Positions 4,455 to 63,129 of a DNA stretch of 64,000 nt are shown here, one piece after another (positions within the stretch are counted from its first letter, which is position 1; each line of letters begins with the position of its first letter). The translations under genes were made by a program, and so were the position numbers. This DNA comes from Candidatus Magasanikbacteria bacterium RIFOXYD1_FULL_40_23 (GTDB taxonomy: Bacteria > Patescibacteriota > Patescibacteriia > Magasanikbacterales > GWA2-37-8): contig MFRA01000008.1 in assembly GCA_001783215.1 (NCBI GenBank), forward strand, positions 33,312 through 97,311. The letters run 5' to 3'. Below the pieces are notes generated by a model. That model did no database searches. It was not told the origin of the DNA and saw nothing but the letters and a program-made list of their open reading frames with translations.

Positions 4455-5231
4455 CTAGAGCACGTGGCTCGTGCTCGCGTGCTTGGGGCTCGTGACCTCG
4501 GGCGGCGGGGTGGCGACCGTGGACTCGGCGGCCTCGGTCTGCTGCTCGGTCGGTCGGGTCGTTGGGCGCTGGGACTCGGTCGGGTTGTCGTAGCCGCGGC
4601 CGTCGACGTTACGGAGCAGGTCGTCGAGACCGTGGCCGCCGCCGAGATCGAACTCCATCGTGATGTCGCCGCCGAAGATCTGGCCGAGGAAGTTGCCGAT
4701 GCCGGACTCGGATCCCCGGAGGATCTGCATGTCGATCGGCAGTCGGGTCGCCCGGATCTGCTTGAGCGCCCAGATCGCGTCCATCGGCTTGACCTTGCCG
4801 CTCATCACCAGATCACAGGCGATCTCGATGCCGAACGAGAAGGAGTCGATCGGGTTGAGGAGGCTCTCGAACGGGTCCAGGCCGCGGAACTTGAAGTGGC
4901 CGTGGTTCCCGTTCTTGCACATCACGAAGTTCTCCGTGCTGCGCTGGTAGTCGCGCGGGAGGCGGAACTTGTCCACCTGCCTGGCGACGTCGGCGATGCC
5001 GCTCACGAGGCGCGCGTACTCCGTCTGCTTCTGGATCTTGGCCGCGGTCTCGAACGAGATCTCGCCGGTTGCGGACAGGGTGCCCAGGCACAGGCGGGCG
5101 TCGTCCTGGGTCAGGACGGCGATCTGCTCCTCCATGCCAGCCACGATGATGAGGCCGGAGGGCAGGCGCAGCATGCTGGTGAGGCCGTTGTCGTCGCGGA
5201 GGAAGGTGCCGTTACGCATGATCTTCTTCAT
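4455..5231 (-). CDS. hypothetical protein on a very GC-rich, compositionally foreign insert
   Basis: Coherent 258-aa ORF on - strand; the + strand ORFs across 4326..5324 are antisense artefacts typical of GC-rich DNA; canonical SD GGGAGA 7 nt before ATG; Pro/Thr/Glu-rich C-terminal tail; only weak local resemblance (STENFVMCKNG) to proteasome-beta-type segment, not assigned. Confidence 0.6.
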   Translation of the reverse strand: MKKIMRNGTFLRDDNGLTSMLRLPSGLIIVAGMEEQIAVLTQDDARLCLGTLSATGEISFETAAKIQKQTEYARLVSGIADVARQVDKFRLPRDYQRSTENFVMCKNGNHGHFKFRGLDPFESLLNPIDSFSFGIEIACDLVMSGKVKPMDAIWALKQIRATRLPIDMQILRGSESGIGNFLGQIFGGDITMEFDLGGGHGLDDLLRNVDGRGYDNPTESQRPTTRPTEQQTEAAESTVATPPPEVTSPKHASTSHVL

Positions 5232-9584: not shown

Positions 9585-9812
9585 TCAAGCCATTCCCCAA
9601 GAGTATTTTTTCCGGCGCCAGACCAGCCAGATGGTGGTAATAATTACTCCGGAAATAACCCAGGATAATTTAAGGCTCGCGTCCTCGCTAATTTTGATAT
9701 ATTGGTTGCCCTGAACAAACAGGGCGACGAAAGGCCACAGCATGTAGCCCATCACGTAGCCAATAAATAGCACAAACTCTAGGTAGACAATTTTCCAGAT
9801 GGTTTGTTTCAT
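9585..9812 (-). CDS. small 2-TM membrane protein, higher GC, SD-bearing
   Basis: AGGAGA 6 nt upstream of ATG; GC visibly higher than flanks; hairpin downstream at 9485-9545. Confidence 0.4.
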   Translation of the reverse strand: MKQTIWKIVYLEFVLFIGYVMGYMLWPFVALFVQGNQYIKISEDASLKLSWVISGVIITTIWLVWRRKKYSWGMA

Positions 9813-9943: not shown

Positions 9944-10027
9944 CTATAGGTGGCTAAAGCCACATATATACTCATTCGTTCGCAATAAGTTAAATACATT
10001 TAATTTATTGGCTCATTCATTTCGCAT
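9944..10027 (+). repeat. leader-repeat family copy 1 (promoter/5' leader element abutting ATG of TerC gene)
   Basis: tataggtggctaaagccacatata + ctcattcgttcg + hairpin + ctcattcatttcgcat then ATG. Confidence 0.7.
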
Positions 10028-13704: not shown

Positions 13705-14624
13705 ACCAAGGCAGTTTTTAGGTTTTGTAAATTATTTCTCATTACACTTATATAGTTTTGACCATTTTGAATTTCTTCCTTTGTTAATCCTTCTATTGGG
13801 TTCAATACAAGAGTTTGCGCACCAATTTCGTTGGCAATGGTTTGTGATAGTTTTTGATCCACTACTGTTTCAAAAAATATATATTTTATATTTTTTTCTC
13901 TGGCCAGATTGGATATAGCTGCTATTTGTTTAGGAGAAGGTTCTTCTTCTGGCGATAGTCCTAAAATATGAAAGGTAGTTAGGCCATAATGATTAGCCAG
14001 ATAAGCAAAAGCGTCGTGGGTAGTAATAATTTCGCGTGATTTACAGTTTGTTAAACCAAGTTTAATTTCTTGGTCTAGTTGTAAAAGTTTTATTTTGAAT
14101 GTATCTCTATTTTGATTATACTCTTTTGTGTGAGCGCTATCAATTTTTATTAGGGCGTCGGCGACAATGTCTGCCTCTTTGGCGGCATTAGTTGGGTCAA
14201 GCCAGAAATGAGGATCGTATTGTTCGTCGGGTGAGCTCGGATTGTTAATTTTCAAGTTTCCAAGATGGTCGCTCATTTTTATGGTAGCTACGTTGTTGGC
14301 TGTTAATTCGGGTATAATTTTTTCTGCCCAAGCGTCTACACCTTGGCCGTTTAATATAAATAAATCCGCAGTATAAATTTGAGCCATATCTCTGGGAGTT
14401 GGTTCAAACTCGTGCGGTTCGGCGCCTGGGGGAGTGATGTTAATAACGTTTACATGTTCTCCACCAATATTTTGAGCAAAATCCGCCAATGGATAAAAAC
14501 TAGCAACAATGTTTATTTTGTTTGTGGTGTTGTTTGCGGTAGGCGAAGGTTGTCGGCTAATAGCAACAAAAACAGCGATAGTCACAATTAGAGCGGGGAT
14601 AGCTAGTAAGTATTTATTTTTCAT
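13695..14624 (-). CDS. znuA: metal (zinc) ABC transporter substrate-binding protein, TroA/ZnuA-like
   Basis: Signal peptide, DPHFWLDP and HDAFAYL motifs; ATG at 14622-14624 preferred over TTG at 14630. Confidence 0.8.
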   Translation of the reverse strand: MKNKYLLAIPALIVTIAVFVAISRQPSPTANNTTNKINIVASFYPLADFAQNIGGEHVNVINITPPGAEPHEFEPTPRDMAQIYTADLFILNGQGVDAWAEKIIPELTANNVATIKMSDHLGNLKINNPSSPDEQYDPHFWLDPTNAAKEADIVADALIKIDSAHTKEYNQNRDTFKIKLLQLDQEIKLGLTNCKSREIITTHDAFAYLANHYGLTTFHILGLSPEEEPSPKQIAAISNLAREKNIKYIFFETVVDQKLSQTIANEIGAQTLVLNPIEGLTKEEIQNGQNYISVMRNNLQNLKTALVCP

Positions 14625-14706
14625 AATCAAAATGAGTGAGTGAAATAATCAAAATATTTTGATTATTTATGAACGAATGAGATTATATGGACTTTAGCCC
14701 ATATAC
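14625..14706 (-). repeat. leader-repeat family copy 2 (abuts znuA start, reverse orientation)
   Basis: revcomp reads tatgtatatgggctaaagtccatataatc...aaataatcaaaatattttgattattt...ctcactcattttgatt then ATG. Confidence 0.7.
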
Positions 14707-14794
14707 ATAGAATTATGTAAGATTAACTATTATTATACTAGCACAGGTTTTAAATACTTGCAAGTAAGTTGCATTTATGATATAGTCTGGTTGT

Positions 14795-16209: not shown

Positions 16210-16290
16210 ATACGAAATGAGAGAGCGAAATAATGAGCTTGCTCAATTATTTCCGAGCGAATGAGTATATATGCGGCTTTAGCCCCTATA
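16210..16290 (-). repeat. leader-repeat family copy 3 (abuts start of 15622..16209)
   Basis: revcomp: actataggggctaaagccgcatatatactcattcgctcgg + hairpin + ctctctcatttcgtat then ATG. Confidence 0.7.
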
Positions 16291-20255: not shown

Positions 20256-20403
20256 TATATGGGCTTGGCCGCATATATTCTCGTTCGTAAATAACTAAAC
20301 AAGTTTAGTTATTTAACTCACTCATTTCGATTATATTAAAATATATTCTCATTCGTTCGGAAGCAACCAAGCAAGCTTGTTATTTCGCTCACTCATTTCG
20401 ATT
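20256..20403 (+). repeat. leader-repeat family, two tandem copies (second lacks GC palindrome) ending at ATG 20404
   Basis: tatatgggcttggccgcatatattctcgttcg..ctcactcatttcgattat + atatattctcattcgttcgg..ctcactcatttcgatt then ATG. Confidence 0.7.
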
Positions 20404-20739
20404 ATGAAAAAAGTACTTCCGCTTGATGAAAAATTGGTGGTCAGAATGATGAACAAGTTTGATGCTCAGGTCATTGCCTCTGATTCCAAAGAAAAGCTGG
20501 CCAAACCAGAGGTAAGAGCTAGTATGATTGAGCAGGCGGTAGATGAAATATTGGCTACTAAAAATAGCATCCATTTAGTAAATCGTGAAGCGTATATACA
20601 AGCTGTGAGCAGTCGTTTATTTAGAGAAGAAAAAATAGTAGAAATGGGTGAGGGTGCCTATTTGGAAATGATGAAAGGTGCAAGAGCGGCCGAGCTCAGG
20701 GCTCCGCAGGAAGGTGAAGGTTATCTAAAGAATAAATAA
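20404..20739 (+). CDS. hypothetical soluble protein
   Basis: ORF starting at ATG that abuts leader repeat; ORF-track start 20377 lies inside the repeat. Confidence 0.45.
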   Translation: MKKVLPLDEKLVVRMMNKFDAQVIASDSKEKLAKPEVRASMIEQAVDEILATKNSIHLVNREAYIQAVSSRLFREEKIVEMGEGAYLEMMKGARAAELRAPQEGEGYLKNK

Positions 20740-39018: not shown

Positions 39019-39094
39019 TATAGGGGCTAAAGCCGCATATAAACACACTTCGCTCGAAAATATTTTAGCAAGCTAAATATTTTGCTCACTCAGT
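39019..39094 (+). repeat. leader-repeat family copy 6 (abuts mreB ATG)
   Basis: tataggggctaaagccgcatataaac..cttcgctcg + hairpin + ctcactcagt then ATG. Confidence 0.7.
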
Positions 39095-53031: not shown

Positions 53032-53640
53032 ATGATTACTTCTATCCCATCAAAGAAAATATTAGTAAAACTTTATTTAGGGCAAAAGAAATCGGCTCAG
53101 GATATTGCTGATATTTTTAAATGCTCTCTAAATAAGATTTGGTACTGGATGGGGAAGTATAAAATAAAATCAAGAACAATTAGCGAGGCAATTTATAGAC
53201 AGAAAAATCCAAAAGGAGATCCGTTCAAAATAAAATATCCAAGTACACTGAAAGAAGCCATGTTATTCGGTTTTGGTTTGGGCTTATATTGGGGCGAGGG
53301 AACAAAAGCCAATAAATATGCGGTAAGACTGGGAAATACTGATTATAGATTAATAAAAAAATTTATTAAGTTTTTAATAAAAGTATTCACCATTAAAAAG
53401 AAAGATCTGAAATTTAGTTTACAGCTATTTACCGATATTAATCCAAAAACAGCACTTAACTTTTGGGTGAATAGTCTGAACGTGACTAGGGATCAATTTT
53501 ATAAGAGTACCATTACGAAGTCAGTCAGAAAAGGAACATATGGAAAGAAAAGTGAATATGGAGTTTTAACAGTTTATTATCATAATAAGAAAATGAGAGA
53601 TGTATTAGTAAGTCTTTTGGATAAAGAAAAAAGTAAGTAA
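53032..53640 (+). CDS. LAGLIDADG-family homing-endonuclease-like protein with N-terminal HTH
   Basis: Single MLFGFGLGLYWGEGT motif (LAGLIDADG variant with GEG) followed by KFIKFL helix; stop codon abuts intron-containing tRNA. Confidence 0.5.
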   Translation: MITSIPSKKILVKLYLGQKKSAQDIADIFKCSLNKIWYWMGKYKIKSRTISEAIYRQKNPKGDPFKIKYPSTLKEAMLFGFGLGLYWGEGTKANKYAVRLGNTDYRLIKKFIKFLIKVFTIKKKDLKFSLQLFTDINPKTALNFWVNSLNVTRDQFYKSTITKSVRKGTYGKKSEYGVLTVYYHNKKMRDVLVSLLDKEKSK

Positions 53641-53901
53641 TGCCGTTGTAGCTCAGATGGTAGAGCATTTCCATGGTGGGTCGCCAATGACTCCTGCCCA
53701 TTGTGAGGGAAATCTTGCAATGTTACCCGAATTACGGTTAATAGCCATTACAATGGCCAAGACCGTGGCGTGAGTACGCCCGAACGACTGACAAGGGGAG
53801 CTAAGCTCGAAAGAGTATGCTCAAGATACAGTCTAGCCCTCTAATTAAAAGTAGAGGTGTAAGCGAAGGAAAAGGTCTCGGGTTCAATTCCCGACAACGG
53901 C
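53641..53901 (+). tRNA. tRNA-Thr(GGU) interrupted by about 188-nt intron between positions 36 and 37
   Basis: Exon 1 gccgttgtagctcagatggtagagcatttccatggt; exon 2 aaggaaaaggtctcgggttcaattcccgacaacggct; stems pair canonically once 53677-53864 is removed. Confidence 0.7.
53677..53864 (+). ncRNA. small group I intron in tRNA-Thr anticodon loop
   Basis: 5' exon ends in U; P1 can form between exon catggt and intron gccaatg; R-like element gaACGACUgAcAAGg, S-like element AAGAUAcAGUCu, terminal G before 3' exon. Confidence 0.6.
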
Positions 53902-54054
53902 TCAAGCTCTGAACTATGATATAAGGAACATTTTTCGTGAGCGTTAATATAAAAATAAGCGCTGTACCAGCGCTTGAAATTACGTCGTTCGTCCTAGATG
54001 AAGGCAAGTCTTCGCCTAGGAACTTACTAGAAATTATAAATTAAAATAAAAAAT

Positions 54055-54337: not shown

Positions 54338-54408
54338 AGGCCTGTAGTTTCAATGGTAAAACATCGGTCTCCAAAACCGAGGTTCTCGGTTCGAATCCGA
54401 GCGGGCCT
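54338..54408 (+). tRNA. tRNA-Trp(CCA)
   Basis: Acceptor aggcctg/cgggcct, anticodon loop ctCCAaa, T-loop ttcgaat. Confidence 0.85.
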
Positions 54409-55837
54409 GCACAGACCGAAATAGGGCGATTTCCGGTACAATTCGGTAGCCCCCTTTCGCTAAACAATCAAATTTTTTGCCTTTCACCGTAAAGTTCGAG
54501 CCTATTTTTTTAAGAAATGTTCGAATTTGGAGAAAATCGCCGTCCGCGGCGATTTTTTTGGCTTGGCAACTGGATAAAATGAATTCCCTCATCGGTTCGA
54601 GCCAATCGTTGCCCTTGTTCTTAACTTCCTTAATTTTGGCTTCCAGATCAAGTTTGTCGTTGAGGAGTTTTTCTTTTTTGTTTATGTATTCTGGTTTATC
54701 AATAATGCCATCCAAATGAGAATCAAGGAGTTTATCTAGCTTTGTCTTAATAGGCATTATTTGTCCTTCTACGGCCTGAACAAGGGCGTCGGACGACTGG
54801 ATTGCGGATGCTTGCTCCTCGTTGAGTTTAGCAAGCAATTTTTCGGTCCAGTCGTCTGACAAAGAAACTTTTTGCAGAGTATCTTTAAACTGGCTCACCA
54901 ATTCTTCTTCGCGGATATATTTTTCATCACAGTTAGTTCGCTTTTTAGTACAGCGGTAATAAATATGTCCTTTGTGCTTTTCGGCGGTAATGGCTCGTCC
55001 GCAAGATCCACAGCTCATTAGGCCGGTAAAAATATATCCGTGGCTGCTTTTTTTTCGGCGCTTGCCCCGCAAGAGCATTACCGCTTGCGCATCGTCAAAA
55101 AGTTTCTTGGTGATTATCGGTTTATGCGTACCCTGGTGTAGTTCGTCGTTAAAACGAAACACGCCAGTGTAAAAAGGATTTTTGAGAATATGCTGCATGT
55201 CGCCCGGCATCATTATTTTGTTTGTCTTAGTGCGAATATCAAATTTTTGTATTAGTTGTTCAAAAGTATATTCGCCGGTCGCATACAATTCAAAAATCCT
55301 TTTTACAAGTTTATGCTTTTCGGGGTCGGGGAGTATGGTATGGTGGCGCAGGTCGTTATTATATCCAAATGGGGCTTTTCCCGGCCAAATTCCTTTGCGG
55401 AGTTTTTGTCTTATTCCACGCTTTACATTTTCGCTTAGGTTATCTACATAATATTTGCTTTGGCCGAAAGAAATATTAAGCATAAACTTTCCTTGCGGTG
55501 TGTTGTCAAACCAAAACGTTGGAAATTTGAGGGAATTTATTTTACCAGTGTCCAACATGTAAATAACCCGACCGCCATCCACACTGTTGCGGGCTAGGCG
55601 GTCGGGATGCCAAGCCAAAATGCCGTCGGCCTCGCCGGCATCAATTCGCGATAACATTTCGCCGAACAAAGTTCGGCCAGGTTGTTTGGCAGTTTTTGCC
55701 TCGCAAAGCGAGGCGACGATTTCAAGTTTTTCTTTGACGGCAAATTCTTTTAACTCGTCGATTTGAGCGTCGATTGACATTACTTGACGCTCTTCCGATT
55801 CGCTAGACTTGCGAGCGTATAAAAAATATTTGGCCAT
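54350..55837 (-). CDS. large serine recombinase (resolvase domain + recombinase domain + zinc ribbon + coiled coil)
   Basis: YARKSS catalytic Ser region, CGSCG...C..C zinc ribbon, long coiled coil; last about 35 codons are encoded by inverted repeat A and the frame runs antisense through tRNA-Trp, so true stop uncertain. Confidence 0.8.
   Translation of the reverse strand: MAKYFLYARKSSESEERQVMSIDAQIDELKEFAVKEKLEIVASLCEAKTAKQPGRTLFGEMLSRIDAGEADGILAWHPDRLARNSVDGGRVIYMLDTGKINSLKFPTFWFDNTPQGKFMLNISFGQSKYYVDNLSENVKRGIRQKLRKGIWPGKAPFGYNNDLRHHTILPDPEKHKLVKRIFELYATGEYTFEQLIQKFDIRTKTNKIMMPGDMQHILKNPFYTGVFRFNDELHQGTHKPIITKKLFDDAQAVMLLRGKRRKKSSHGYIFTGLMSCGSCGRAITAEKHKGHIYYRCTKKRTNCDEKYIREEELVSQFKDTLQKVSLSDDWTEKLLAKLNEEQASAIQSSDALVQAVEGQIMPIKTKLDKLLDSHLDGIIDKPEYINKKEKLLNDKLDLEAKIKEVKNKGNDWLEPMREFILSSCQAKKIAADGDFLQIRTFLKKIGSNFTVKGKKFDCLAKGGYRIVPEIALFRSVQARSDSNREPRFWRPMFYH
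54406..54510. repeat. inverted-repeat A (blocks X 54406-54480 and Y 54481-54510), starts at 3' end of tRNA-Trp
   Basis: Exact reverse complements found at 55892-55966 (X') and 56094-56120 (Y'). Confidence 0.85.
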
Positions 55838-55891
55838 ACAATTTTATTTATTATAGAAAAGTTTGCTTTTGGTGTCCGCCGAGCGGACAAA

Positions 55892-55966
55892 GGCAAAAAA
55901 TTTGATTGTTTAGCGAAAGGGGGCTACCGAATTGTACCGGAAATCGCCCTATTTCGGTCTGTGCAG
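55892..55966. repeat. X' = reverse complement of block X
   Basis: ggcaaaaaatttgattgtttagcgaaagggggctaccgaattgtaccggaaatcgccctatttcggtctgtgcag. Confidence 0.85.
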
Positions 55967-56070
55967 CGGGGATACGAAAAATTACGAGGGGAATTTATGG
56001 GGGCCCAATAACGGGACGGGCGGAAGGAGGGGTTGGGGGAGGAATTCCGCCCGCCCACCGGCGCGCTTTT
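55964..56070. repeat. inverted-repeat B, left copy (about 107 bp, G-rich, GC-rich)
   Basis: Reverse complement present at 59826-59933 with about one mismatch; many G3-G5 runs. Confidence 0.85.
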
Positions 56071-56093
56071 TAAAAACTGCCAAACAACCTGTT

Positions 56094-56120
56094 AAAAAAA
56101 TAGGCTCGAACTTTACGGTG
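56094..56120. repeat. Y' = reverse complement of block Y (duplicate of recombinase codons KKIGSNFTV)
   Basis: aaaaaaataggctcgaactttacggtg; flanked with X'-B1 by a 12-bp inverted repeat gtttgcttttgg (55861) / ccaaaagcaaac (56122). Confidence 0.8.
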
Positions 56121-56248
56121 GCCAAAAGCAAACTTTTTTTATTATACCATATTAATAATTATCTTAGGTGGACAACTTATCTCTAAATATACTTGTAATC
56201 AAAGGGATAGTATGGTAAAATGTCCCTATCATAACTAATAAAAATATT

Positions 56249-56464
56249 ATGGAAGATCTTAAAATATTAAAAAACATTGATAAAAAACTATCAGCTTTAT
56301 TAGCACTTTCCATAGCTTCATGGTTCGGAAGCGCCGACGAAAAATTGAAGACTAAGCCGGAGACAATCCTTTCAACTGTTGGGATTGAAACAAGCGAAAT
56401 AGCTCTGATTTTAGGAAAAAAACTTGACGCTGTTAGAAAATCTATTCAAAGATCTAAAAAATAA
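56249..56464 (+). CDS. mini-HTH protein, paralogue 1 of 4
   Basis: 71 aa; KKLSALLALS...G....IALILG pattern shared with 56467, 56672, 57805 genes; TTGTAA-17-TAAAAT promoter upstream. Confidence 0.55.
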   Translation: MEDLKILKNIDKKLSALLALSIASWFGSADEKLKTKPETILSTVGIETSEIALILGKKLDAVRKSIQRSKK

Positions 56465-56466
56465 AT

Positions 56467-56670
56467 ATGGATAAAGAATTATTACAAACACAAAAAGAAA
56501 TCGTAATGTTATTAGCTATTTTGGTTAGACGGGGAGTTATGCAATCTAGTATCATTGCTGAAATGGATGCGGTGGGACTATCTCCGAAAAGGATTGCTGA
56601 ACTTTTGGGTACCAGCTCTAACACAGTAAGTGTCGCGCTTTCAAACGCACGTAAGAAAAAAAATAAATAA
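56467..56670 (+). CDS. mini-HTH protein, paralogue 2 (clearest HTH: LSPKRIAELLGTSSNTVSVALSNARKK)
   Basis: 67 aa; sigma-r4/resolvase-like HTH. Confidence 0.6.
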   Translation: MDKELLQTQKEIVMLLAILVRRGVMQSSIIAEMDAVGLSPKRIAELLGTSSNTVSVALSNARKKKNK

Positions 56671-56671
56671 T

Positions 56672-56863
56672 ATGTCAGGAAAAAAGCTAGAAGAAAAAAT
56701 GGATAATTTAGAAGCGATAAAACGTCTATTAGTTTTGTTATTAATCAAGCAGGGGGTTGGAATAGACGCGGTAGCCGATGTTTTAGAGGTAGGAGTAGCA
56801 ACGGTTAGCAGGATGGTGCCGCAAAAAAAGTTAAAAAAAGGGAATAAAATTACTATAGACTAA
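56672..56863 (+). CDS. mini-HTH protein, paralogue 3
   Basis: Start at ATG 56672 one nt after stop of previous gene; ORF-track 56630 start overlaps upstream gene. Confidence 0.5.
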   Translation: MSGKKLEEKMDNLEAIKRLLVLLLIKQGVGIDAVADVLEVGVATVSRMVPQKKLKKGNKITID

Positions 56864-56885
56864 GAATGGTTTTGAACAATTTTTT

Positions 56886-57791
56886 ATGACTCTGAACGTG
56901 TCCGATGTTAGATCGAATGGGCCTGAGCAGATACAACATGCCGCCCAATCCTTAGGAAGATCACCGCAGAGAATTGCGGTTTTTGAAGCCATATACAAAG
57001 GTGGTAGTACGCCTAAATCTGTAAAAATTTTAGCTAATTTATGTTTGGCAGAAATTAAGGATGGGAATCATCGAGAAATAAGAATTGCGCAAGAAGCAGC
57101 CTACTTGTTTAATCATGGAATGGTCGAAAAGTACGTTGATGAAAAAACACACAAATTATGTTATAAAAAAGTTGATTTTTATAAATCACACAAAAAACAA
57201 ATAGTTGAATTCGCGAGAGATCCTAAGAAAATGAAAAAAATGATCAGCAAACGCACGCCTATTGTTCGTGAAGTTAAATCAAGAACAGTTGTATATAAAA
57301 GCCCGATAAATGCAAAACAAATTTCAATTGATGATATTGATAATTTTCTTAAAGTAAAAAAAACGGGCGGTAGTAGCGCCTCGGCCAAAACAATTTTAGA
57401 AAAAAACATAAAGAATGGCTTTAAAAAAATTATTGGCGAAACCGGTAAATTTACAGATTGGGGTGGTGAGAGAAATGATTTATTTACAACACGGGTGAGG
57501 TTAGATAAAAAAAGAATTTCAGCTGCGATAGCATTTAAGGGCCGTGCGACGCAAGGAATATTAACGCCTAAAAAGCTTGGGAAGAATGGAGATCAGATTA
57601 ATAGGCTTTTTACTAGCCCAGCCCAATTATTCCTAGTTGTTTATCATAGCGAAATTGATCAGTCGGTGCTAGAACAAATGAAAGCCTTTGCTGTTGCTGT
57701 AGGACAGGCAGGTCAAAAGATTTACTACGGAATCGTTGATGGTAAGGACTTAAATGCAATAATTACAGCTTATCCTAATTTTTTTAAATAA
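56886..57791 (+). CDS. paralogue-type HTH N-domain fused to Mrr-like (PD-(D/E)xK) restriction-nuclease-like C-domain
   Basis: SPQRIAVFEAIYKGGSTPKSV resembles mini-HTH paralogues; C-part TDWGGERNDL...ISAAIAFKGR resembles Mrr catalytic GDGGID...QAK core (tentative). Confidence 0.5.
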   Translation: MTLNVSDVRSNGPEQIQHAAQSLGRSPQRIAVFEAIYKGGSTPKSVKILANLCLAEIKDGNHREIRIAQEAAYLFNHGMVEKYVDEKTHKLCYKKVDFYKSHKKQIVEFARDPKKMKKMISKRTPIVREVKSRTVVYKSPINAKQISIDDIDNFLKVKKTGGSSASAKTILEKNIKNGFKKIIGETGKFTDWGGERNDLFTTRVRLDKKRISAAIAFKGRATQGILTPKKLGKNGDQINRLFTSPAQLFLVVYHSEIDQSVLEQMKAFAVAVGQAGQKIYYGIVDGKDLNAIITAYPNFFK

Positions 57792-57804
57792 TTAGTAGTT
57801 ACTT

Positions 57805-57996
57805 ATGGACAATAATAAAGAGCTCAATAAAAAATTGGATGCGTTAGTTGATCTTTCCTTGCATTCCCTGGTTTTTTCCATGTATATGTCTGGAAACACA
57901 ATGGATCAGATATGTAAAAATTTACACATACACAAGACACGAGTTGTAGAATTGTTGAAAGGTTTGGAAAAGAATCGACAAACAAATAATAAATAA
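57805..57996 (+). CDS. mini-HTH protein, paralogue 4
   Basis: 63 aa; KKLDALVDLSLHSLV...TRVVELLKGLEK. Confidence 0.5.
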   Translation: MDNNKELNKKLDALVDLSLHSLVFSMYMSGNTMDQICKNLHIHKTRVVELLKGLEKNRQTNNK

Positions 57997-58009
57997 TAAT
58001 CCAAACAAA

Positions 58010-58936
58010 ATGAAAAGCTACTATCGCATAATGCTTGGAAGAGGGAGTGTTTACGCTAAAGAGGCGCATGACGGTAATTATATCGGCGCTGGCTGGTTTG
58101 AGAATGTAGACTTAAGCAACGATCTTCCAGAAAATCGTAGGGATTTTAACAAAAAATTTATACCGTTATACTTGGAAAAAAATCCTGGTAAATCAAAAAT
58201 CGCCGCGGGATTGGCCTGTGGTATGTTATACACAGTGGCCAAAGGTATCTCTGCTGGTGATATTGTTTTATGCCCGGACGGGCAGCGAAATTATTGGATA
58301 GGAGAAGTTCTGGGAGATTATCAGTTTCAACCTGGCACGAACTTGCCACATAGACGCACAATTCGCTGGTTTCCCAAAGCCATACCAAGAGATGAAATGA
58401 GCGAAGCGTTGCAGTACGCAACGGGATCTATAGGTGCTGGCGCAAATGTATCTGGCTTTGCAGACGAAATTGAAAATTTTATTTCAGGAACTCGTCCAGC
58501 AACAATTATTTCAACGGATGAAACTGTTGAGGATGCGGGTATTTTTGCGCTTGAAAAACATCTAGAAGATTTCCTAGTACAAAATTGGAAATCTACAGAG
58601 CTTGGAAAGAAGTATGATATTTATGAGGAGGGTGGAGAATCTGTTGGCCAACAATATCCAAGTGATACAGGGCCTATTGATATTCTAGCGATAAGTAAAG
58701 ATAAAAAAGAGATTCTTGTGGTAGAATTAAAAAAGGGAAGGATTGGCGATGTCGTAGTTGGTCAAATACAACGTTATATGGGTTTTGTTAAAGATGAGTT
58801 AGTCGAAGACGACCAGATAGTTCGTGGTGTAATTATTGCTTTTGAAGACGATATTAAAGTGCGCCGAGCTCTTTCGGTCGCGCAAAATATTGATTTCTAC
58901 ACATACAAAGTTAGTTTTAAACTTGAGAAAAAATAA
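58010..58936 (+). CDS. PUA/EVE-like N-domain fused to NucS/RecB-type PD-(D/E)xK nuclease; candidate modification-dependent restriction enzyme
   Basis: N-part YYRIMLGRGSVYAKEA..NYIGAGW...AGDIVLCPDG...YWIGEV (PUA-like pattern); C-part GPIDILAISKDKKEILVVELKKGRIGDVVVGQIQRYMGFV (D..E.K, QxxxY). Confidence 0.55.
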   Translation: MKSYYRIMLGRGSVYAKEAHDGNYIGAGWFENVDLSNDLPENRRDFNKKFIPLYLEKNPGKSKIAAGLACGMLYTVAKGISAGDIVLCPDGQRNYWIGEVLGDYQFQPGTNLPHRRTIRWFPKAIPRDEMSEALQYATGSIGAGANVSGFADEIENFISGTRPATIISTDETVEDAGIFALEKHLEDFLVQNWKSTELGKKYDIYEEGGESVGQQYPSDTGPIDILAISKDKKEILVVELKKGRIGDVVVGQIQRYMGFVKDELVEDDQIVRGVIIAFEDDIKVRRALSVAQNIDFYTYKVSFKLEKK

Positions 58937-58937
58937 T

Positions 58938-59750
58938 ATGAACAACAAAGACGATCAAAAATTAGTCGATGATTTTCTTTTTAATTATTATACAAAGGGT
59001 GTCTCTCTTAATTTGGATGAAAGTGACTTTATTGAGCTGAAAGGAAGCCATCCTTTTCTTAATTTGTTTAATATAGATGCAGTTAAAAAAGCCATAGCAG
59101 GAAGAAATAAAATTGAGGCTGAAAATTATGAAAAAAGCAGGAATAATGTAGAAGAGCTACAAAATGTTAGCCAATATTTTAAGGATAAGGCAATCGAAGA
59201 TTTATTAGAAAAACATTTTAAAAAGGCAGGCAAAAAGGAAAAGGAGTATATTAAAAATGAGCTTGAGAGTGAATTATATAAACACAGGACTTCCGATACA
59301 TTTGATGGGGAGCTTTACATGGATTTAATAAAAGGTGTCGATGGATTTAAAACCAAGTTTTTTTGGTCAAAAATAAAAAAAGTATTAGATTATGCCTGGT
59401 TTTTATTAATAAAATTTTCAACCTTGGCTGTAGTATTGGCAATTTATGATGTAGTTTACAAAGATTTTGAAGTGGTAGTGGCAAGCATATCTATTTTAAT
59501 ATATGTTTCTTTAACGGGGTTTATACAGTTATATACATTTTATACTGATTTGCATAGGATTGAGTATCTGAACGAGTTTAATGAGCTAAAAAAGATGATT
59601 AAACCGAACTATGCGTACGAAATAAAAGAGAAGGAATTATTAACTAGTATCAATAAAATAAATAAAGGGAATGTAAAAATTTTAATAAATTTAATATTTA
59701 ACTCCATTATTTATTTAATAGCAATTTTTCATTTGCTCAGCTTACTGTGA
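58938..59750 (+). CDS. coiled-coil protein with C-terminal 2-3 TM helices (possible membrane effector)
   Basis: ATG at 58938 directly after upstream stop; ORF-track 58836 start overlaps the previous gene. Confidence 0.45.
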   Translation: MNNKDDQKLVDDFLFNYYTKGVSLNLDESDFIELKGSHPFLNLFNIDAVKKAIAGRNKIEAENYEKSRNNVEELQNVSQYFKDKAIEDLLEKHFKKAGKKEKEYIKNELESELYKHRTSDTFDGELYMDLIKGVDGFKTKFFWSKIKKVLDYAWFLLIKFSTLAVVLAIYDVVYKDFEVVVASISILIYVSLTGFIQLYTFYTDLHRIEYLNEFNELKKMIKPNYAYEIKEKELLTSINKINKGNVKILINLIFNSIIYLIAIFHLLSLL

Positions 59751-59825
59751 GTTCTAAAGAGGTTCGAGGTGTACGTATAGATACGCAATAAAAGAATTTG
59801 CCGTCAAAGAAAAACTTGAAATCGT

Positions 59826-59933
59826 CAAAAAGCGCACCGGTGGGCGGGCGGAATTCCTCCCCCAACCCCTCCTTCCGCCCGTCCCGTTATTGGGCCCCCA
59901 TAAATTCCCCTCGTAATTTTTCGTATCCCCGCT
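59826..59933. repeat. inverted-repeat B, right copy
   Basis: Reverse complement of 55964-56070; ORF 59754..60371(-) and ORF 55932..56186(+) share peptides only because they read through the repeats and are spurious. Confidence 0.85.
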
Positions 59934-60026
59934 GCGATATCCTAAATGGCTATAATAGCCATTTTTTGGTTCTAATATTGACAGGTATTCAGAATTACAG
60001 TATAACTTGCCCCAAGGAGACGCACC

Positions 60027-60464
60027 ATGTCTGAGCCAGAAAAAAACACTGCAAAATATTGCTATTGCGGAAGGCGCCATGAAACGGATGAACAGGTTCA
60101 ATCCTGTCAGTTGCTGGGCATACCTACTCCGCGGTATTTGAAGGGGGAGCAGATCCAATTCTGGGGAGGTGAGCTCATGCACAAGGCTACTATCCTTGAG
60201 CTTCAAGCGGTACGAGATCCAGACTCGGATTATGATCCTCATAATGATCCGATTTACTATTTGGTCGAAGTGCATGATGGGCACAGACCATACTGCGTTG
60301 TAAGTGAAGACGATCCGTCCCGCCCTATCACAGAGTATGATGTTGATGGTATTGTCGGAAAAATTGGTCAAGACGACCTACTGGTCAAACCACCGCAGGT
60401 GGAACGGGTGTGTTCCTTCGAGGAGCGCAACAATATTTTCGATACTGTGGTGCGCGCTGCTTAA
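60027..60464 (+). CDS. Cys-containing hypothetical protein in monocistronic cassette
   Basis: TTGACA-17-TATAAC promoter, AGGAGA SD, hairpin terminator at 60484-60505; GC higher than native genes. Confidence 0.5.
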   Translation: MSEPEKNTAKYCYCGRRHETDEQVQSCQLLGIPTPRYLKGEQIQFWGGELMHKATILELQAVRDPDSDYDPHNDPIYYLVEVHDGHRPYCVVSEDDPSRPITEYDVDGIVGKIGQDDLLVKPPQVERVCSFEERNNIFDTVVRAA

Positions 60465-60625
60465 AACACGTTGCGTCGCATTCAAAGAGCTCACTTAGGT
60501 GAGCTCGCTTTATTATATGGAGTAAATTGCAAACACTGTTTTTTCGGTGTTTTTGTTTTTAGTATTGACTTTTTATAATTATTATATTAATATCTTGTGG
60601 CCAAATAGGAAAGGGAGAACAGCCA

Positions 60626-61320
60626 TGTCAACAGGCGTTGGATTTTCTCTGCTTGATTTTCAGTTCGGCCATCTCTATGAGCATAATCATGAGAACAAAA
60701 CGACCAGAGTTTATGGGTTTACCCCAGAAACTTTCCTGCTGTTACCAGGTGGTCACACGCACTTTGGGTTTGTCCTTAGTGGGCATATTGTTTTGGGCTA
60801 TGCTAATGGTAGCAAAATGCCGCTTCCTAAAGGTTGCCATTTCTGTGTAAAAGAGGTTGCTACTGTCGAAAGTTATGGCACGGGGATTGTCAGCTCTGCG
60901 GAAGGCTTTGCTGGCATGAATCAGTTTGGTGGTCCGTTGGAAAACGAGGGCAGATTCCGGTATGTGGACGGTTGTTCCAATAGTTTGCTTGTTCACCCAT
61001 TGCGTAAGGGTGATCCTTGTTTTCATCATCTGCATTTGGATCCTCATGTCAAGGAGATGCCACATACGCACCCATCATTACGCACGCTGGTTGTGTATCG
61101 AGGGGAGGGCGAGGCAATTGTGCCTGGTTTGGATACGGTTCATATCAAAAGAGGTGACGCTTTCGTTATAGAGCCAGACTGTGTTCACAGCTTCAACACT
61201 GGAGAGGCGGGTATGAGTTTGGTTACTTACCATCCCGATAGTGTGGTTGGGTATACCGACGACAACAACCCGATGCTTAACAATACGATCTCAGGCGGTA
61301 AAAGTGCCAGACGAGATTAA
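60626..61320 (+). CDS. bicupin-fold protein
   Basis: Start at ATG 60626 preceded by AAGGGAGA and TTGACT-17-TAATAT; cupin motifs HHLHLDPH...MPHTHP and GDAFVIEPDCVHSFN; terminator gcccacttatctgcctaaagcaggtaggtgggc after stop. Confidence 0.6.
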
Positions 61321-61494
61321 GGGATGTAAAGCACCCACTGTGCCCACTTATCTGCCTAAAGCAGGTAGGTGGGCTTTTTAATTTAAATGTATTTTGAGAT
61401 GTAAATTATAACCCCTCCTGGAATACTCTTTATAGACAAAAATAATCCAAAAAGATATAATTCAAATAATAATATTTGAACCTAACTTTAACAT

Positions 61495-61803
61495 ATGCCA
61501 GAAAAAGAAGTGCCGTTAGCCATAATAATTGAAGCGTCTACAACCGTAGTCGAATTGCTATACAATATTGAGCGAGCGGGTGGAATTAAAAAAAGCAATG
61601 GAAAATTCCAAAATTTAGATGAATTACGAAATGAAATTATTCTTCCGCCAAATACAGATTTATATACAGTAAAAATTATGATAAACATTTTGCCTAGAAT
61701 TATGTCTGGAGTAACCAACACCGACGGTTTTAGAAAAAAATTATCAGAACTTTTATTGAAAGAACTGGAAGCAAAAAAATTAGAACTAGGTGGATCAAAT
61801 TAA
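61495..61803 (+). CDS. hypothetical protein (native AT-rich composition, no SD)
   Basis: 102-aa ORF. Confidence 0.4.
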   Translation: MPEKEVPLAIIIEASTTVVELLYNIERAGGIKKSNGKFQNLDELRNEIILPPNTDLYTVKIMINILPRIMSGVTNTDGFRKKLSELLLKELEAKKLELGGSN

Positions 61804-61928
61804 AATTTTACGATACGCATAAAAAGATAGCTAGCTTGGCTGTCTTTTTTAGTATAGACAAACCATATTCTTCTTGTTAAGCTCTTGTTATTCTGCAGTA
61901 CCAATCCCCGAAAGGGAAGGAGTCGACA

Positions 61929-62129
61929 ATGACCAGCGATTACGAGAGGACTGTAATTAACCCCGGTGACCTTGTTTCCAAGATGGGGTATAAAGCATGC
62001 GTGGGGAGCTATGGCAATTCGCGGGCCGTATTGATTACCCCTCAGCCCGAGGGTAAGTTTCGTGGTTTGGTTGGCCACAGGTGGAACGATCATGTTTCTG
62101 CGTGCCATGCTAGACAAGCGGGTTGTTGA
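61929..62129 (+). pseudogene. possible N-terminal fragment of the PurM-like gene (frame 0) with strong SD
   Basis: GGGAAGGAG SD then ATG 61929; frame differs by +1 from 62062 ORF and overlaps it by 68 nt. Confidence 0.3.
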
Positions 62130-63129
62130 AACAACCCAGAATGATGGCGCTGGCGGCAAGCCGCAGTTCTTTACTTTGGTGGGAACCCCAGAGGCATTTC
62201 GTATGCTGGGTTGGGAGGTTATTGTCATGTGCAATGATGATGTTGCTTGTGGCGGCGGTTTGCCCGTCGTCTTCTCGAGCAATCTAGATATCAAAGAGAT
62301 TACGGCCGAGAACCTGCACTTGTGTGAAGCGTTGATGAGTGGATTTGCCAAGGCGCTTGCCGCCTCTGGTACGGTGCTGATCACTGGTGAGACGGCCGTG
62401 ATGCGACACAGCATTACCGCCTTCTGCGATCGCAGTAATCCTGCGCAGCTCATCGTGAACTGGGCAGGAACGTGTTTGGGCCTTATGCGAACGGATAGAC
62501 CGCCGAACGGTTCTACCATTCGTCCTGGTATGGCGGTTGTTGGTTTGGGTGAAGATGGTTATCGTTGCAATGGCGGTACCGCTCTCACCAACCTGCTTTT
62601 GCAGACTTGGGGACCGCGTATTGAAGACGTGCTGGCAAGCCAAGAAGCGATGGAGTTTGCGAATCAGCTTGTGATTCCTTCACGAAGCTATGCAAGAATG
62701 CTTTCGTATCTTACCGGTTGGCAAAACAATGGCATTCCCGGCGATCCGGTTGCGCGCATTCACGGAATGGCGCACATAACGGGTGGTGGCGTGTGGAACA
62801 AGTTTCGTGAACTGCTTCCGGTGGGAGTGGGTGCGAATTTGCACAACATGCTAAATCCTCCCGAGGTTCTGCTTCGTGCTCAAGAGCTAAGTTATCGACT
62901 TGGTGGCGAGAAAGTTATTACCGACAAGCAGTGCTATGGCACATTCCACGGTGGGTGTGGTGCGTTGTTGGTAGTGGATCCGCAAGATGCAGATTTGGTT
63001 TGTTGGGAAGCGTCTAATTTTGGCCATAGAGCCACGGTTGTGGGCGAGACCACAGAATCTATCGGTAATGAGGTTGTGATTCAATCTCGTTTCCTTCGAG
63101 GCAAATTGCTTTCTTCTCTTCACGAGTAG
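62062..63129 (+). CDS. PurM-like (AIR synthase related) protein
   Basis: Aligns by eye to E. coli PurM: VIVMCNDDVACGG vs VAMCVNDLVVQGA, TGETAVM vs GGETAEM, AHITGGG vs AHLTGGG; GTG start in ORF track. Confidence 0.65.
   Translation: MVWLATGGTIMFLRAMLDKRVVETTQNDGAGGKPQFFTLVGTPEAFRMLGWEVIVMCNDDVACGGGLPVVFSSNLDIKEITAENLHLCEALMSGFAKALAASGTVLITGETAVMRHSITAFCDRSNPAQLIVNWAGTCLGLMRTDRPPNGSTIRPGMAVVGLGEDGYRCNGGTALTNLLLQTWGPRIEDVLASQEAMEFANQLVIPSRSYARMLSYLTGWQNNGIPGDPVARIHGMAHITGGGVWNKFRELLPVGVGANLHNMLNPPEVLLRAQELSYRLGGEKVITDKQCYGTFHGGCGALLVVDPQDADLVCWEASNFGHRATVVGETTESIGNEVVIQSRFLRGKLLSSLHE

Follow-up and report, generated by a model that had tools for sequence, protein, structure and literature searches.

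A putative spare attachment site, in inverted orientation, within a serine recombinase island at a tRNA-Trp gene of Candidatus Magasanikbacteria

Why should a long, G-rich inverted repeat enclose a few kilobases of genes in an otherwise AT-rich bacterial genome? The repeat pair in question, B and B', lies in a 64,000-nt stretch of contig MFRA01000008.1 (positions 33,312 to 97,311; hereafter the window) from Candidatus Magasanikbacteria bacterium RIFOXYD1_FULL_40_23. A first-pass annotation of the window, made from its sequence alone, had read the pair either as a recombination or structural element for inversion of the enclosed genes (the cargo) or as the ends of a non-autonomous transposon carrying them. 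The first of these ideas is supported in part, as B and B' are recognizable as attachment-site arms that flank the cargo of a large serine recombinase (LSR) island. B/B' is half of the picture, since a second repeat pair, a/a' (78 nt), abuts it. We consider it likely that an island at the 3' end of a tRNA-Trp gene has B as the P arm, on the cargo side, of its attachment site, and that this arm has been duplicated in inverted orientation as part of a spare, attP-like site inside the island.

Two overlapping repeat pairs at tRNA-Trp

The island is 5.5 kb long (~54411-59935), and its order along the plus strand is tRNA, a, LSR (reverse), a'B, cargo, B' and flank. Its target, tRNA-Trp(CCA) at 54338-54410 on the plus strand, was called by both ARAGORN and Rfam. 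The LSR gene, an open reading frame (ORF) of 495 aa on the minus strand (54350-55837), runs antisense into this tRNA and encodes the Pfam domains Resolvase (PF00239, 3.5e-19), Recombinase (PF07508, 2.4e-13) and Zn_ribbon_recom (PF13408, 6.5e-11). The N-terminal motif YARKSS is seen in the alignment, where R9, K10 and S11 are invariant, and at the other end of the protein many homologues share the tail encoded antisense to the tRNA. The final 78 nt of the conserved LSR coding sequence (residues 452-477) make up arm a (54407-54484), the element-side half of attL. Arm a' (55889-55966, plus strand) repeats it in inverted orientation with 100% identity and is the left half of the internal site. The arms of the other pair, B (55963-56071) and B' (59827-59935, minus strand; the right end of the island), are 109 nt each and mismatch once, at 56062, where C stands against the complement of 59836. 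The repeat is thus as close to perfect as had been reported, with about one difference between the arms, although the coordinates first given for it were off by 1-2 nt.

What ties the two pairs together is a core of four nucleotides. CTGC forms the last four positions of the tRNA in attL (54407-54410) and the last four of B' in attR (59932-59935), and its complement, GCAG, is found at 55963-55966, where a' and B overlap. The internal junction (55889-56071) therefore consists of the LSR's own 3' end and the distal end of the island, joined at the core, which is the sequence that the ends of an excised circle would form. By this logic the junction of a' and B would be an intact attP-like site, placed in inverted orientation between the divergent LSR and cargo genes; the junction of the tRNA with a is attL and that of B' with the flank is attR. 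Since the internal site is built from both arms, the B/B' and a/a' repeats are two halves of one duplicated attP. We propose that the LSR would insert the island at the extreme 3' end of tRNA-Trp, with recombination at this core. The LSR ORF itself crosses the crossover core and the antisense tRNA (54350-54410), which gives the protein a tail, …QARSDSNREPRFWRP…. Excision would swap this tail for a B-encoded …QRGYEKLRGEFMGAQ, so that the integrated and excised states would encode slightly different LSR proteins.

The nature of the outer part of B can be judged from a property of serine integrases, in which the motif bound by the zinc ribbon lies 5 bp nearer the centre in attB than in attP (PMC3783163). 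The CGAAC-like motif of the B arm and the T-loop motif (TTCGAAC) of the tRNA could both be placed in 13 related loci. In all 13 the former is exactly 5 nt further from the core, the positions moving from 14 to 19, from 12 to 17 or from 13 to 18 between tRNA arm and B arm. The window itself fits, with CGAAC of the tRNA at 14 and CGAGG of B at 19. This offset matches the attP/attB rule and argues that the outer ~25 nt of B, which follow the core GCAG (55963-55966) at ~55967-55992, are a P-type LSR half-site mimicking the tRNA T-arm. The inner ~80 nt make up a conserved, putatively accessory module, a hairpin with GC-rich stem and G-rich loop.

The architecture recurs far beyond this genome. The LSR family comprises 7,939 proteins at E <= 1e-20 among 8,000 candidates scored, and 468 loci were confirmed in a scan of species-representative genomes. 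Of these, 80 were fetched, and the recurrence counts given here refer to 82 related loci. Most of the family belongs to Patescibacteria (the candidate phyla radiation, CPR), with further members in Bacteroidota, Nitrospirota and Proteobacteria; loci outside Patescibacteria include Thermodesulfovibrio, the isolate genome of Schleiferia thermophila DSM 21410 (L010), and metagenome-assembled genomes of Gammaproteobacteria and Kiritimatiellia. In 60 of 68 loci the LSR gene has a tRNA gene in antisense at its 3' end, for Ser, Gln, Trp or another amino acid. Repeats of the a type were found in 31 of 38 loci and those of the B type in 28 of 40, and 22 of the 29 loci with full context have both; loci with two pairs are found at tRNA-Ser, -Gln, -Trp and -Asn. 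The pairs mostly overlap by 3-9 nt, and arms with 100% identity are frequent. Cores of 3-10 nt were found in 15 related loci, and in 14 loci besides the window the internal site equals, base for base, the locus's own LSR 3' end joined to its distal end. Numerous contigs end 150-350 nt upstream of the LSR, that is, at the repeat.

A sister element (L131) on the same contig, outside the window (~129.7-147.2 kb), lies at tRNA-Asn(GTT) and has both repeat pairs and a restriction-modification cargo; its LSR is 70% identical to that of the window, and its arms are the only other copies of B in the contig. Within the window no further copy of B was found. The inner 82 nt of the sister's B arm are 97.6% identical to those of B, while the outer ~27 nt are unrelated; it follows that the outer part changes with the target and that the inner part is a module common to the two elements. 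Elsewhere in the family, tandem arrays occur in which the LSR 3' end of one element abuts the B arm of the next (a1'-B2; L016 and L027), and a diverged a-copy may stand ahead of the distal B (L001, L003 and L025). Both features look like signs of accretion at the tRNA. Within the window, no additional remnants of an LSR gene or of tRNA-Trp that would mark older island ends were found.

The cargo of the window (56249-59750, plus strand) occupies the space between the internal site and B'. It encodes four small helix-turn-helix proteins, a 301-aa protein without assigned function, a 308-aa NucS_C/PD-(D/E)xK protein that matches PDC-S02, a defence candidate of PADLOC (E = 2.9e-151), and a putative membrane protein of 270 aa, called as such by eye from its hydrophobic C-terminal half and without a match in Pfam or PADLOC. 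The four small proteins (56249-56863 and 57805-57996; 63-77 aa) have mostly weak matches to helix-turn-helix or sigma-70 region 4 domains and could be candidate regulators or directionality factors. Cargo varies even among close relatives: L001, whose LSR is 79% identical to that of the window, carries a methyltransferase, a Schlafen/AlbA_2 protein and a helicase, and L003, with an LSR 93% identical, carries other cargo genes.

The hairpin of arm B and the fragment copies of the LSR gene

An internal hairpin had been noticed in B from its complementary ends, cgggcgg...ccgcccg, and the folding results agree. A 12-bp stem (56013-56025/56045-56056) closes a G-rich loop of 19 nt (56026-56044, GGAGGGGTTGGGGGAGG), the module as a whole spanning 56013-56056 in B and 59842-59885 in B'. 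Its DNA fold has a free energy of -12.9 kcal/mol (z = -3.2). The RNA fold of the whole of B is no better than that of shuffled sequences (z = 0.18 and -0.79), and the local hairpin alone stands out. The hairpin recurs among elements of the Trp, Ser, Gln and Gly subfamilies, where its loop is conserved (consensus GGAGGGG-N1-4-GGGGAGGAA), whereas the stems vary in sequence yet remain paired, as in GGGCGGGCGG/CCGCCCGCCC, CCCGCCCGC/GCGGGCGGG, GGCGTGCCAAA/TTTGGGCGCGCC and GGACGCGCC/GGCGCGTCC. Across 22 distinct sequences, 83.8% of stem cells are paired compared with 64.5% after shuffling, and 11 of the 12 stem pairs have changed on both sides; none of 500 shuffles reached the observed values, and slid controls gave at most 53%. 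The stems of this hairpin covary. A strict stem-motif scan of the relatives placed the hairpin at LSR-element arms only, and a looser scan for paired G-tracts added a single hairpin in L043, ~5.4 kb away from the arms. Viral contigs scanned for the loop motif gave one match, which is unrelated.

These stems also account for the base composition of the repeat. B has a GC content of 61.5% against 38.9% for the whole window, where 1.6% of 109-nt windows are equally GC-rich. Across the element family the arms range from 41 to 64% GC and the loci from 36 to 56%. The high GC of B is explained by the GC-rich structural stems that are typical of the arm throughout the family. Therefore, while the first-pass annotation was right that the GC content of B departs from that of its host, the departure does not call for a separate foreign origin.

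Several other functions for B and its hairpin were considered and set aside. An intrinsic terminator is unconvincing on reading the sequence, given a loop of 19 nt and no adjoining T-run in either orientation. Pairing of the loop as a Shine-Dalgarno or anti-Shine-Dalgarno sequence is contradicted by the orientation of the G-loop strand relative to the LSR gene, which is inconsistent among subfamilies. The ORFs that overlap the arms (55906-56073, 55932-56186 and 59754-60371) were judged spurious, and a coding role for B was dropped. In an Rfam search of 53.5-60.5 kb (gathering threshold; E<=1) B had no family match, and a retroviral packaging signal reported on it was sub-threshold and taken as a chance match.

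Beside the B arms lie short copies of pieces of the LSR gene itself. At 55698-55714 (LSR gene nt 124-140) the gene contains a perfect 17-nt palindrome of the form 7-3-7 (fold z = -3.6), flanked within the gene by segments c (55678-55697) and e (55715-55752), and copies of both flanks adjoin the B arms. Next to the internal B, on the plus strand, are c' (56072-56091), an exact copy of LSR gene nt 141-160; d' (56092-56120), an exact copy of 29 nt near the 3' end of the gene; and f' (56122-56137), an exact inverted copy of segment f (55857-55872) in the LSR promoter region. Immediately inside B', and again on the plus strand, is e' (59789-59826), a 38-nt copy of LSR gene nt 86-123. The palindrome is precisely the 17 nt that separate the source segments of e' and c', and in topology the cargo segment resembles a skeleton of the LSR gene unit that has been circularly permuted, with the opening at the palindrome. 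A small hairpin, h (55873-55888; fold z = -3.9), completes the region, and most relatives have a counterpart of it, unrelated in sequence, at the inner edge of a'. The window also contains ~70-nt palindromic repeats resembling miniature inverted-repeat transposable elements (MITEs) or repetitive extragenic palindromes (…CATATATTCTCATTCGTTCGG…CTCACTCATTTCGATTAT…; 9952-9994, 14604-14709, 16251-16290, 20281-20412, 39019-39108 and 46185-46281). Members of this group in L001 (~9690-9760) and L003 (~9670-9740) are inserted at differing points within d', beside the internal B.

Both the Ser and the Trp subfamily have this layout of c', d', f' and e', and where an LSR gene has synonymous variants, its copies have them too. 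Of 84 family genes, 43 contain the palindrome in perfect form; it also occurs in compensated variants, some of them non-synonymous (GCCTCGC/GCGAGGC, GCTTCGC/GCGAAGC, GCTTCCT/AGGAAGC and GCCTCGT/ACGAGGC). Most other clades lack it, those encoding ETFIES or QEFVES among them, and six checked loci of palindrome-free clades are also without the fragment copies. A conserved peptide across c' and d' was discarded on reading the sequences, the fusion being in frame in the window and out of frame in L010. An origin of the copies in a single event, be it nested insertion, LSR-mediated inversion or fold-back, was likewise rejected, as it does not reproduce the junctions of B with c', e' with B' and d' with f'.

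Possible inversion of the modules and alternative readings

Can the cargo invert, as was first suspected? The geometry would permit it. The internal site has arm a in common with attL and arm B in common with attR, in each case inverted; recombination within either pair therefore flips the LSR module or the cargo module and leaves the junctions unchanged. Eight or more same-species contigs, assembled from several samples, have the arrangement of the window. Cargo in the flipped orientation is found in three independent contigs of that species, namely L116 (ERZ28563792), L085/L093 (ERZ4902888) and L095 (JGI 3300003358). In the first two the order is reverse-flank - B - c' d' f' - cargo, and in L095 it is cargo - e' - B' - a - h' - f' - LSR 5' end. 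All three match the window with 100% identity, and jointly they rebuild an isomer in which the cargo segment alone is inverted. The single-nucleotide difference between the arms, 10 nt from the inner end of B, remains linked to the cargo ends, so that any exchange would have taken place within the outer 99 nt. The LSR module, for its part, is flipped in L076 and L082, where the tRNA lies in sense just upstream of the LSR; these 2 loci compare with 60 in which it lies antisense at the LSR 3' end.

As canonical serine integrases recombine attP with attB and accept no other pairing (PMC3783163), they do not pair attP with attR, and homologous recombination across the 78- and 109-nt arms is the conservative route to inversion. 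The cargo would most simply flip in this way, with a non-canonical activity of the LSR as the alternative.

A number of observations weigh against these interpretations. The two arms of the repeat that the flipped contigs span do not differ in their outer 99 nt, and one of these contigs has a coverage of 3x; the contigs may be mis-resolutions by the assembler. The short fragment copies have the same orientation in 13 of 13 loci (the window and 12 relatives), and inversion, if it occurs, is therefore rare or selected against. A metagenome scan for the empty attB, that is, the predicted junction of tRNA and flank, gave 10 matches, all of them chance matches in unrelated high-GC DNA, and every contig of the same species carries the island. 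A contig across the circular junction could not be told from the internal site, as the two sequences would be the same. A recombination directionality factor was not identified. Finally, the internal copy of a in L001 and L003 is just 70-90% identical to the 3' end of its own LSR gene, and the spare attP is therefore not an exact copy in every case. Taking the flipped contigs and these reservations together, we lean with moderate confidence toward inversion of the cargo being real. The suggestion of the first-pass annotation is thus plausibly right, with an assembler mis-path as the other possible source of the three contigs.

A more ambitious interpretation treats these islands as a distinct and widespread class with two modules, in which an obligatory internal inverted attP, with the conserved G-loop hairpin on it, would let the recombinase and cargo modules flip, separate or exchange as units that each bear an attP, without a separate directionality factor. 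The palindrome of the LSR gene and the copies of its flanks beside B would take part in the mechanism, one possibility being hairpin- or homology-guided docking of cargo cassettes, and the loop of the B hairpin would be an element that the recombinase or a factor of the host recognizes, perhaps when the DNA is single-stranded or cruciform. We regard this as a tentative proposal, and a doubtful one.

At the other extreme, the internal site and the fragment copies might have no present function and be fossils of sister elements that inserted in nested or tandem fashion and then underwent inversions and deletions, the repeats being kept by chance or gene conversion. The tandem arrays and the junctions of diverged a-copies with B (L001, L003, L016, L025 and L027) are what such a history would leave behind, and the three copies of a in L003 resemble the 3' ends of three distinct LSR genes. 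However, the layout recurs across phyla and tRNA genes with LSRs only 50-60% identical, and its arms are usually 100% identical; the short fragments follow the synonymous variants of their own LSR gene; and in the hairpin the loop is conserved and the stems are compensated. Persistence of this kind is not expected of a neutral fossil, which makes the explanation unlikely.

The first-pass annotation also saw strong G-quadruplex potential on one strand of B, and a quadruplex might be its main function, driving recombination or regulation. The G4Hunter score (25-nt window) peaks at 2.24 at 56013-56044, B and B' are the sole regions above 2.0 in the 64 kb, and such a score indicates a high predicted quadruplex propensity; moreover, two long G-tracts (G4-7 N1-4 G4-7) belong to the loop consensus conserved across subfamilies. 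The G-richness announced in the first-pass annotation and the potential that it drew from it are borne out to this extent. The G-runs of three or more number seven, not the eight or more first claimed, and no canonical motif of four G-tracts (>=3) with short loops (<=7 nt, or 1-7 nt) is present, a motif appearing only when loops of up to 12 nt are allowed. The 5' stem and loop of the hairpin occupy this same G-rich stretch, where hairpin and quadruplex would be competing folds. Two of the four tracts lie in the compensated stem, favouring the hairpin as the selected fold, and the strand carrying the G-rich loop relative to the core varies among subfamilies. We therefore think it improbable that B is primarily a quadruplex element.

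Very little can be said for B/B' being the terminal inverted repeats of a non-autonomous, MITE-like transposon mobilized in trans. A long, nearly perfect inverted repeat around 3.7 kb of cargo without a recombinase of its own speaks for such an element. The prediction of target-site duplications fails directly outside the arms, where TCTGT on the left and GATAT on the right form no direct repeat; the 4 nt at the outer ends, GCAG/CTGC, belong to the repeat itself. Copies are not dispersed in the window, and the stem motif of the relatives keeps to LSR-element arms. The DNA outside the left arm is no target DNA; it is the inverted copy of the LSR 3' end, to which that arm is fused at the shared core. 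The outer part of B co-varies with the tRNA target, and with the LSR gene adjoining, the unit is autonomous. This origin is thus very improbable. An artefact of assembly or amplification, such as a chimeric fold-back, is scarcely credible: although numerous contigs break at the repeat edges, the same arrangement was assembled independently in at least eight contigs from various samples and assemblers (NCBI, JGI and ENA records), and the architecture is also present in the isolate genome of S. thermophila.

Relation to known systems and wider meaning

With these alternatives weighed, an attachment-site arm of an LSR island remains the preferred reading of B, and the island may be set beside systems that are already known. 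It resembles LSR elements and prophages (phiC31, Bxb1, A118/LI, SPbeta SprA and the SCCmec Ccr) in its Resolvase-Recombinase-Zn-ribbon enzyme and its short shared core, as well as in attP and attB half-sites with the same motif offset of 5 bp (PMC3783163); tandem accretion at one site is shared with SCC elements. It differs from them in having the extreme 3' end of a tRNA as its target and a recombinase ORF that crosses the crossover point, in the second intact, inverted attP-like copy between recombinase and cargo, and in arms of 80-400 nt rather than ~25 nt that contain a conserved hairpin, with no recognized directionality factor.

The serine invertases (Hin, Gin, Cin, Pin and PinQ) likewise have inverted sites that flank segments by or around the recombinase gene. 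However, they are enzymes of ~190 aa with a C-terminal helix-turn-helix that act on 26-bp sites with a Fis-bound enhancer, whereas the window has a 495-aa LSR with att-like sites and repeats of 78-109 nt. Both orientations of invertase segments occur in nature; for the island, three contigs with flipped cargo, possibly mis-assembled, stand beside at least eight of the window type, and one orientation strongly predominates. The yeast 2-micron plasmid, with FLP/FRT in inverted repeats of 599 bp, offers another parallel, as the circular form of the island would likewise have two unique segments between inverted repeats and flip isomers; FLP, though, is a tyrosine recombinase associated with replicative amplification, and here amplification is not indicated and the cargo annotations include no replication gene. 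Tyrosine-integrase islands at tRNAs (Islander-type islands and tycheposons) are similar in their position at the tRNA 3' end, their variable defence or adaptive cargo and their tandem arrays. They leave direct repeats of the 3' part of the tRNA, whereas the serine enzyme leaves only a core of 3-9 nt, and the island has inverted internal repeats. In engineered recombinase-mediated cassette exchange two inverted P-type sites flank the cassette, as they do here, although a natural counterpart with two inverted attB sites is not evident. Serine-integrase islands at tRNAs are a known kind of element, to which this family belongs; for its recurrent architecture we found no description in the literature.

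The window contains three other features worth recording. At 53639-53906 lies a tRNA-Thr gene (GGU, by comparison with L001 and L003) interrupted by ~188 nt, its halves being contiguous in L003; the gene was not called by ARAGORN, and a match to the Rfam group I intron is sub-threshold (E = 0.032). At 4455-5231 on the minus strand a 258-aa ORF occupies a high-GC stretch (56% in the 4-5 kb bin, against ~37% around it) and looks like a recently acquired foreign gene. The right flank of the island (59936-63129) has a GC content of 45-53%, well above that of the genome, and encodes a 145-aa protein without assigned function, a cupin, a 102-aa protein and a 355-aa AIR-synthase-like protein. This flank could represent an older island, although neither a recombinase nor an att remnant was found in it.

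LSRs are prized for genome engineering and are regarded as simple two-site enzymes. Our analysis points to a large natural LSR family that takes the 3' ends of tRNAs as targets and ferries defence genes, with the unusual traits of a spare inverted attP, long arms and a hairpin conserved in its loop, and, in one clade, a selected hairpin in the LSR gene that is mirrored at the borders of the cargo. For annotation, this accounts for the frequent contig breaks beside such recombinase genes and provides a rule by which att sites can be read straight from the integrated sequence. Should the spare site and the hairpins prove functional, they would represent a new control of directionality, inversion or cargo exchange in serine-integrase elements, and a route by which defence cargo moves among CPR bacteria.

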